A DNA stretch of 64,000 nucleotides. Origin: Escherichia coli. Lineage in GTDB: Bacteria; Pseudomonadota; Gammaproteobacteria; Enterobacterales; Enterobacteriaceae. This document shows, one piece after another, positions 45,296 through 45,744 of the stretch. The stretch is taken from NCBI RefSeq assembly GCF_044647545.1, contig NZ_CP172818.1. One strand, 5' to 3'. Each line of letters begins with the position of its first letter. The first letter of the stretch is position 1. The notes under the pieces were generated by a model. The model did no database searches. It saw only the letters and a list, made by a program, of their open reading frames with translations, and had not been told where the DNA came from. Both the position numbers and the translations under genes were made by a program.

Positions 45296-45587
45296 CAAGG
45301 AAAATTGCTCGAAAGTGACTGTTTGGTTAGGTTGCGAACAGCGTGGCGCTATATTCGTCAATTATTGTTTACTTTGTGTTTTTTCCCCACCCTACAGCCA
45401 TTCTTTTGTCATACAGGATGAAATTCGGAATTCAACAATAGTGGTGGGAAATTAATCTATGAAATACTCCCTTCAACAACACAGGATTACCTCATTTCTA
45501 CCACACATTTATTAGGAATACTATCTTTTATACATTATTACTTAAACCTCCAACCAAACCGAAAAAAATATTTTTTAAAATTAAAAC

Positions 45588-45645
45588 AAAAAAAAAAAAA
45601 AAAAAAAAAAAAAAAAAAAAAAAAAAAAAAAAAAAATAAAAAAAA
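45588..45645. repeat. Poly-A tract (49 uninterrupted A, then T, then 8 A) inside an AT-rich segment
   Basis: Counted directly; lies between the tRNA operon promoter region and the asnB 3' end. Confidence 0.95.
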
Positions 45646-45744
45646 GAAGCGTGGCCTACAGTGATGAATTGTCAAACAGTGATGTGGCAAACCCGGAACA
45701 TTTCCTTACTGCATATCAGAATCAACAAGCACCTCAATAACTGA

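Follow-up and report, generated by a model that had tools for sequence, protein, structure and literature searches.

The metT-asnB intergenic region

The window, that is, the whole 64-kb stretch of Escherichia coli DNA that was analysed, carries the tRNA-Met gene metT at 45141-45217 on the minus strand, which was found intact by ARAGORN and the Rfam tRNA family and is identical to that of ECONIH1. metT is the first gene of the metT-leuW-glnU-glnW-metU-glnV-glnX tRNA operon, and a promoter-like site for this operon (TTGACG-17-CATAAT) lies on the minus strand at 45258-45286, untouched, about 180 bp from the anomaly described here, with one and the same sequence in K-12, FDAARGOS_497 and the window. 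On the other side of the gap, the asparagine synthase B gene asnB (45782-47446, minus strand; annotation transferred by alignment from relatives) is also intact, as is a GC-rich terminator-like hairpin at 45742-45775, standing between asnB and a convergent native ORF. This ORF belongs to the gene of a 145-aa protein (WP_000943487.1), and its intact 3' end, the last 29 codons and the stop, occupies 45651-45740 on the plus strand. From 45651 on, the window is identical to ECONIH1, and the DNA at 45218-45468 is normal intergenic DNA, the same as in ECONIH1. Downstream of the tRNA operon, the Rfam family naRNA4 (REP-like) matched 44394-44462 on the minus strand below threshold, with 30.9 bits where the gathering score is 59.5.

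Between these stretches lies an aberrant piece of 182 nt, 45469-45650, with ATGAAATACT at its left edge and GTGGCCTACAG at its right edge. Sequence inspection and a homopolymer scan showed 49 consecutive A at 45588-45636, directly preceded by cttaaacctccaaccaaaccgaaaaaaatattttttaaaattaaaac, then a T at 45637, eight A at 45638-45645 and the letters GAAGC. The tract that the original prediction had placed between the metT promoter and asnB, 49 A, a T and eight more A, is therefore really present, at 45588-45645, and there is an anomaly within the AT-rich segment that it had delimited as 45440-45660, although the true extent is narrower. The gap had been put at about 560 bp, 150-200 bp over that of K-12. 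Compared with K-12 MG1655, it measures 564 bp (from metT at 45141-45217 on the minus strand to the asnB end at 45782) versus 379 bp, an excess of 185 bp, and the same gap in FDAARGOS_497 is 811 bp; in ECONIH1 (NZ_CP009859.1) the native gap lies at 747,505-748,316. There are seven homopolymer runs of at least 10 nt in the 64-kb window, and all seven are found within the corrupted blocks at about 35.05 kb, at 36.0-36.7 kb and between metT and asnB. A homopolymer of 49 nt cannot have arisen by chance within 64 kb.

The original prediction had named the presence of the segment, as such, in finished E. coli genomes as an outcome that would speak against it. In the form that it has in the window, the segment was found in none of the 5,426 complete E. 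coli genomes, which supports a fault in the source sequence. The part outside the poly-A (45455-45592) gave no BLAST match in plasmids, phages or E. coli genomes in distant mode, and a 26-mer from the tract was absent, by exact scan, from GTDB representative genomes and JGI metagenome contigs. Searches with Rfam returned tRNAs only and none within 45469-45650. No promoter or terminator signal was found inside the same interval, the metT promoter and the hairpin both lying outside it, and a structured RNA or regulatory element was rejected on these two grounds. The only ORF at the tract is that of the last 29 codons of the native gene.

We considered a genuine foreign insertion of low complexity or with a poly-A tail, such as a mobile element, a retro-copied RNA or a vector remnant. 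The 185 bp that the gap has over K-12 would fit such an event, and the terminal poly-A recalls retroposed copies. However, a check of the boundaries showed neither a target-site duplication nor terminal inverted repeats, no RNA family or meaningful ORF accompanies it, and no donor was matched in plasmids, phages or E. coli genomes, complete ones included (0/5,426). A mobile element was rejected for the lack of repeats at the edges and of a donor match, and we give almost no credence to a foreign origin of any kind, the more so because the piece replaces a native segment from which it derives letter by letter, as described below. Another known system with long mononucleotide runs is that of phase-variable contingency loci, in which tracts usually measure some 7-20 nt and differ in length from strain to strain. 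The run in the window resembles these tracts in being long and in its intergenic, promoter-proximal position, but it has 49 nt, occurs in no other genome and is explained by the A count of the native DNA.

Relation of the tract to a native accessory segment

A three-way alignment with MAFFT showed that the metT-asnB locus is polymorphic, with 429-433 bp in FDAARGOS_497, nothing in K-12 and 182 nt in the window, all in one slot. The native segment (429 bp in ECONIH1 and FDAARGOS_497) is most of the gene encoding the 145-aa signal-peptide protein WP_000943487.1, for which no Pfam or NCBIfam family was found. It occurs once per chromosome in 986 of the 5,426 complete E. coli genomes, and its natural alleles are 88-100% identical. 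K-12 joins ATGAAATAC straight to TGGCCTACAG, and its 379-bp spacer looks like the product of a 433-bp deletion between the 5-nt direct repeats TGGCC that would have removed most of the 145-aa gene. The edges of 45469-45650 agree to the base with this K-12 indel. The window and K-12 thus share the outer boundaries, whereas the space between them is empty in K-12 and holds 182 degraded nucleotides with flanks of a non-K-12 haplotype in the window.

BLAST does not reveal that the tract and the native segment are related, and the relation surfaced only through hints in the MAFFT alignment together with longest-common-subsequence (LCS) and subsequence tests. The LCS of the 182-nt piece and the 429 native nucleotides was 180 of 182, compared with 156.8 ± 1.9 for the shuffled insert, 150.4 ± 3.8 for the shuffled native segment and 150.2 ± 8.3 (maximum 175) for about 2000 random genomic 429-mers. 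The head of the piece, 119 nt at 45469-45587 on the plus strand, is contained in full, as an ordered subsequence, in the first 245 native nucleotides (LCS 119/119), while about 3000 random 245-mers gave 98.0 ± 3.1 with a maximum of 109. The composition of the two is A107 T39 C29 G7 in the window and A107 T111 C87 G124 in the native segment, meaning that 107/107 A were retained, but only 7/124 G, 29/87 C and 39/111 T. About 94% of the G, 67% of the C and 65% of the T are missing, with a loss that grows from left to right, and 247 of the 429 native nucleotides are absent in all.

An A-register test was also performed, in which both sequences were split at each A and every inter-A gap of the window had to be a subsequence of the matching native gap. 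Under the rule of keeping every A and deleting only non-A letters, 104 of the 108 gaps fitted (28 of the 32 non-empty ones), against 6-15 of about 30 in shifted registers, and the four violations reduce to a register slip by one A and a single letter substitution. A profile along the segment showed that A is kept essentially throughout, that G is already missing at the first inserted base, and that C and T are lost progressively. In the head nearly all G is gone, and the loss of C and T grows along it. The tail (45588-45650, plus strand), which reads A49-T-A8-GAAGC, consists of the A's of the last ~185 native nucleotides with almost all other letters gone, and its final letters G..G.C match the native end in register. 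From native position 241 to 400 all 49 A are retained and no C, G or T, and the run of 49 arises because the A's fuse where A alone survives. Fidelity is abruptly back at the right boundary, GTGGCCTACAG.

Judged from these sequence comparisons, the 182 nt is the native segment with most of its non-A letters deleted, and it is neither foreign nor an insertion. The original prediction had taken it for a non-native low-complexity insertion, and this part does not stand, as the tract is a letter-depleted copy of the native 429-bp segment and it is K-12 that carries the short allele. The subsequence relation has already refuted the foreign-insertion reading. With the intact WP_000943487.1 gene the window shares position, flanks, last 29 codons and terminator, and its 182 nt are collinear with the 5' region and coding sequence. 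It differs in lacking the 247 nt and with them the ORF: the start codon, the signal peptide and the first ~115 codons have been destroyed. A natural allele of this gene was rejected as a candidate, since no ORF extends beyond the last 29 codons and BLAST cannot align a tract that would have to fall in the natural range of 88-100%.

A real allele that decayed in vivo, through many small deletions or hypermutation that left an A-rich remnant, would agree with the collinearity of the remnant and with a locus that is naturally polymorphic, with alleles of 88-100% identity and a deletion in K-12. It would however need well over 100 separate deletion events, affecting non-A letters only, to remove 247 nt while the rest of the window (61 kb) stayed identical to ECONIH1, and natural alleles differ by substitutions instead. 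We know of no mutational process that deletes non-A bases only, and a run of 49 A would be highly unstable in replication because of homopolymer slippage. Such an origin is very improbable. Slighter still is the chance that the tract is physically real in a living ECONIH1-like strain through template-directed recopying of both the 429-bp segment and the rhomboid gene described below, skipping most non-A letters; if this were true, a run of 49 A would stand beside a strong tRNA promoter.

Altered places across the window

Compared with ECONIH1, about 61 kb of the window showed zero differences, and some 530 differences were confined to four places: 35021-35082, 35368-37420, 45469-45650 and 47669. 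Outside two blocks, only four isolated sites differed from FDAARGOS_497. The SNPs against FDAARGOS_497 were considered as reference bias towards K-12 and this was rejected, as the two at 2048 and 11419 occur in FDAARGOS_497 alone and many genomes are 100% identical to the window there. At the sequence level, the strain was shown to be of an ECONIH1/FDAARGOS_497-like lineage. The window is 97.8% identical to K-12, with 758 mismatches in 35 kb, and its SNP haplotype is not that of K-12; therefore the input was the true sequence of the strain, and K-12 was "known" to the corrupting process. No K-12 counterpart exists for 35229-37429 and 45469-45651, and 47644-47673 is not alignable to K-12. All four altered places are K-12-absent DNA or a K-12 IS5 site. 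No scar was seen at one K-12-specific insertion in the glnS-chiP spacer and at three small indels. Elsewhere in the window, ybeR-djlB (23944-24967) and ybeU-djlC (26741-27764) form tandem paralogues of 66-69% identity, which are natural and both present in K-12.

The first altered place, 35021-35082 on the plus strand, holds small indels and an insertion of 28 A (35051-35078), a few bases from the K-12-lineage IS5D site upstream of gltI. Of the 5,426 genomes, only 351 have the IS5D junction; MG1655, C600, J53 and ER1709 are among the 12 records listed. At this site the native TTTGTTAGG occurs twice, garbled before the run and intact after it. A minor change is the loss of one A from an A5 run at 47669 (plus strand) in the asnB-nagD spacer, within the 30-nt stretch that cannot be aligned to K-12.

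The largest altered place, 35368-37420 on the plus strand, lies within the K-12-absent 35229-37429 and is the gene of a rhomboid-family intramembrane protease, smeared into homopolymers. In relatives this gene encodes 625 aa, and about 60% of complete E. coli genomes have it, K-12 being without it. In the window it consists of G, A and T homopolymers and broken frames, the errors reaching 50 per 100 alignment columns. NZ_CP026085.1, a 4.83-Mb record labelled "DH5alpha" in RefSeq, also has, between gltI and lnt, a rhomboid-family gene that is frameshifted and is missing from K-12, and this strain label looks doubtful.

Within the 35.4-37.2 kb block the length is nearly kept (1803 versus 1822 nt) and it is the text that is smeared. 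Substitutions copied an adjacent native base in 71% of cases against 49% expected, the error rate was 31% for singleton bases and 16% for bases within runs, and runs of at least 5 nt increased from 11 to 51. By base, A was least affected (11%) and C most (39%). Read in the plus direction, the errors per 100 columns were 0, 4, 1, 9, 22, 47, 37, 43, 39 and 27, giving a sawtooth that resets at about 36243, climbs again to 50 and then drops back abruptly near 37170. The piece at 45469-45650 showed the same gradual decay and abrupt recovery. The original prediction had put this piece in one class with the A28 tract and a block at 35.7-36.8 kb, and indeed all three are corruptions of one record at loci without a K-12 counterpart; its suspicion that the source sequence carries several such anomalies is supported by the four places altered against ECONIH1.

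Error density in the 35.4-37.2 kb block was 32% at naturally variable sites and 27% at invariant ones, and since it is unrelated to allelic variability, the block is not a natural divergent allele. A divergent or recombinant natural allele at 35.4-37.4 kb was also rejected because none of the genomes came closer than the ECONIH1 type and the reading frame is disrupted. The clean island at 36243-36400 was considered as reads aligned to the 154-nt filler of K-12, which was dropped as no similarity supports it.

The gradual decay with abrupt resets resembles the quality decay of a single read, which could suggest that sequencing or assembly failed for reasons that have nothing to do with K-12, for example in a de novo assembly with locally low coverage or bad read ends at these loci. 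Yet all four places fall at K-12-absent DNA or the IS5 site, the metT-asnB one exactly to the base, the flanks are error-free, and noisy reads would not preserve some 107 A across a 49-nt homopolymer. We regard a failure of this kind as quite improbable.

Origin of the corrupted sequence in the deposited record

One of the garbled reading frames, a 110-aa ORF at 35437-35769 on the plus strand (MSASSVKPLNVQLPAITLILF...LGFVW), was found as an exact entry in a collection of 15 billion proteins. The entry comes from NCBI, from a single contig of 4,499,902 bp, and the corruption therefore sits in the deposited assembly. The 4.50-Mb contig is smaller than the chromosomes of the listed relatives (4.69-5.31 Mb) and close to the 4.64-Mb chromosome of K-12.

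We consider it probable, with good though not complete confidence, that 45469-45650 is native E. coli DNA corrupted during construction of the record, most likely by a K-12-guided consensus, and that no cell contains such a sequence. K-12 would have served as template, most probably in a consensus of reads mapped to the K-12 reference. ECONIH1-like reads would have been aligned to K-12, and positions with a K-12 counterpart would have been called perfectly, while strain-specific insertions would have been represented as inserted read bases attached to the reference position before them. If such bases were stacked from the left anchor without realignment, the reads would drift out of phase with distance, and the out-of-phase calls may have turned into locally dominant bases or gaps, dropped or smeared by an A-biased caller, with correct calls resuming as soon as the next reference base is reached.

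A toy simulation was run with 40 reads, about 0.7% indels, unaligned left-anchored stacking and a plurality vote. The mismatches per 100 nt were 0, 5, 21, 38, 40, 46 and so on, accompanied by longer homopolymers, which resembles the first hump of the sawtooth. The simulation yields the clean start, the 40-50% plateau and the smear, but it did not reproduce the A bias and the length collapse. The stacking model gives no account of the preference for A, the commonest native base being G, nor of the shrinkage of 429 nt to 182 nt, the absence of G right from the first inserted bases or the A28 scar. Homology to the 154-nt K-12 filler does not account for the resets at about 36243 and 37170.

The window agrees with known artefacts of reference-guided consensus at reference-absent insertions in that corruption is limited to K-12-absent DNA while alignable positions are perfect, in the left-anchored decay with abrupt recovery at the next reference base, and in a contig smaller than the chromosomes of relatives. 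It differs from what a generic mapping pipeline produces in its strict keeping of A with loss of G, C and T, and in the A28 at an IS5 that only the reference has.

The main rival for the cause is a learned or symbolic in-silico process, for example a generative or denoising model whose strong K-12 prior makes it lapse into homopolymers on unfamiliar sequence, or a text-level manipulation of a real ECONIH1-like genome. It could account for degradation from left to right with abrupt re-locking and a poly-A/poly-G attractor, and for corruption tied to K-12-absent DNA. The deletion-only, A-preserving relation looks symbolic, and the IS5 site reads ...GG followed by A28, like an aborted start of IS5 (GGAAGG...), after which the native TTTGTTAGG is rewritten. 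Against it, the sequence sits in an NCBI record as a 4.5-Mb contig, the error density does not track natural variability (32% versus 27%), and 61 kb of a specific non-K-12 haplotype are free of errors, so that the true sequence would have been required as input. An in-silico cause is thus unlikely, and the verdict on the tract would be alike under it and under the K-12-guided consensus.

The tract is no genuine biological feature; the locus itself is that of an ordinary accessory gene beside the metT tRNA operon. The finding means that a record held at NCBI appears to have its strain-specific regions systematically garbled and its K-12-like backbone perfect. Such records give rise to spurious "novel" low-complexity insertions as well as spurious pseudogenes and orphan proteins, and the garbled 110-aa ORF is already among public proteins. 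A possible filter for genome scans would combine homopolymers of at least 10 nt that are confined to intervals absent from the reference, text that forms a subsequence of the native allele, and a one-directional error sawtooth. Records of this kind bias pangenome and accessory-gene analyses.
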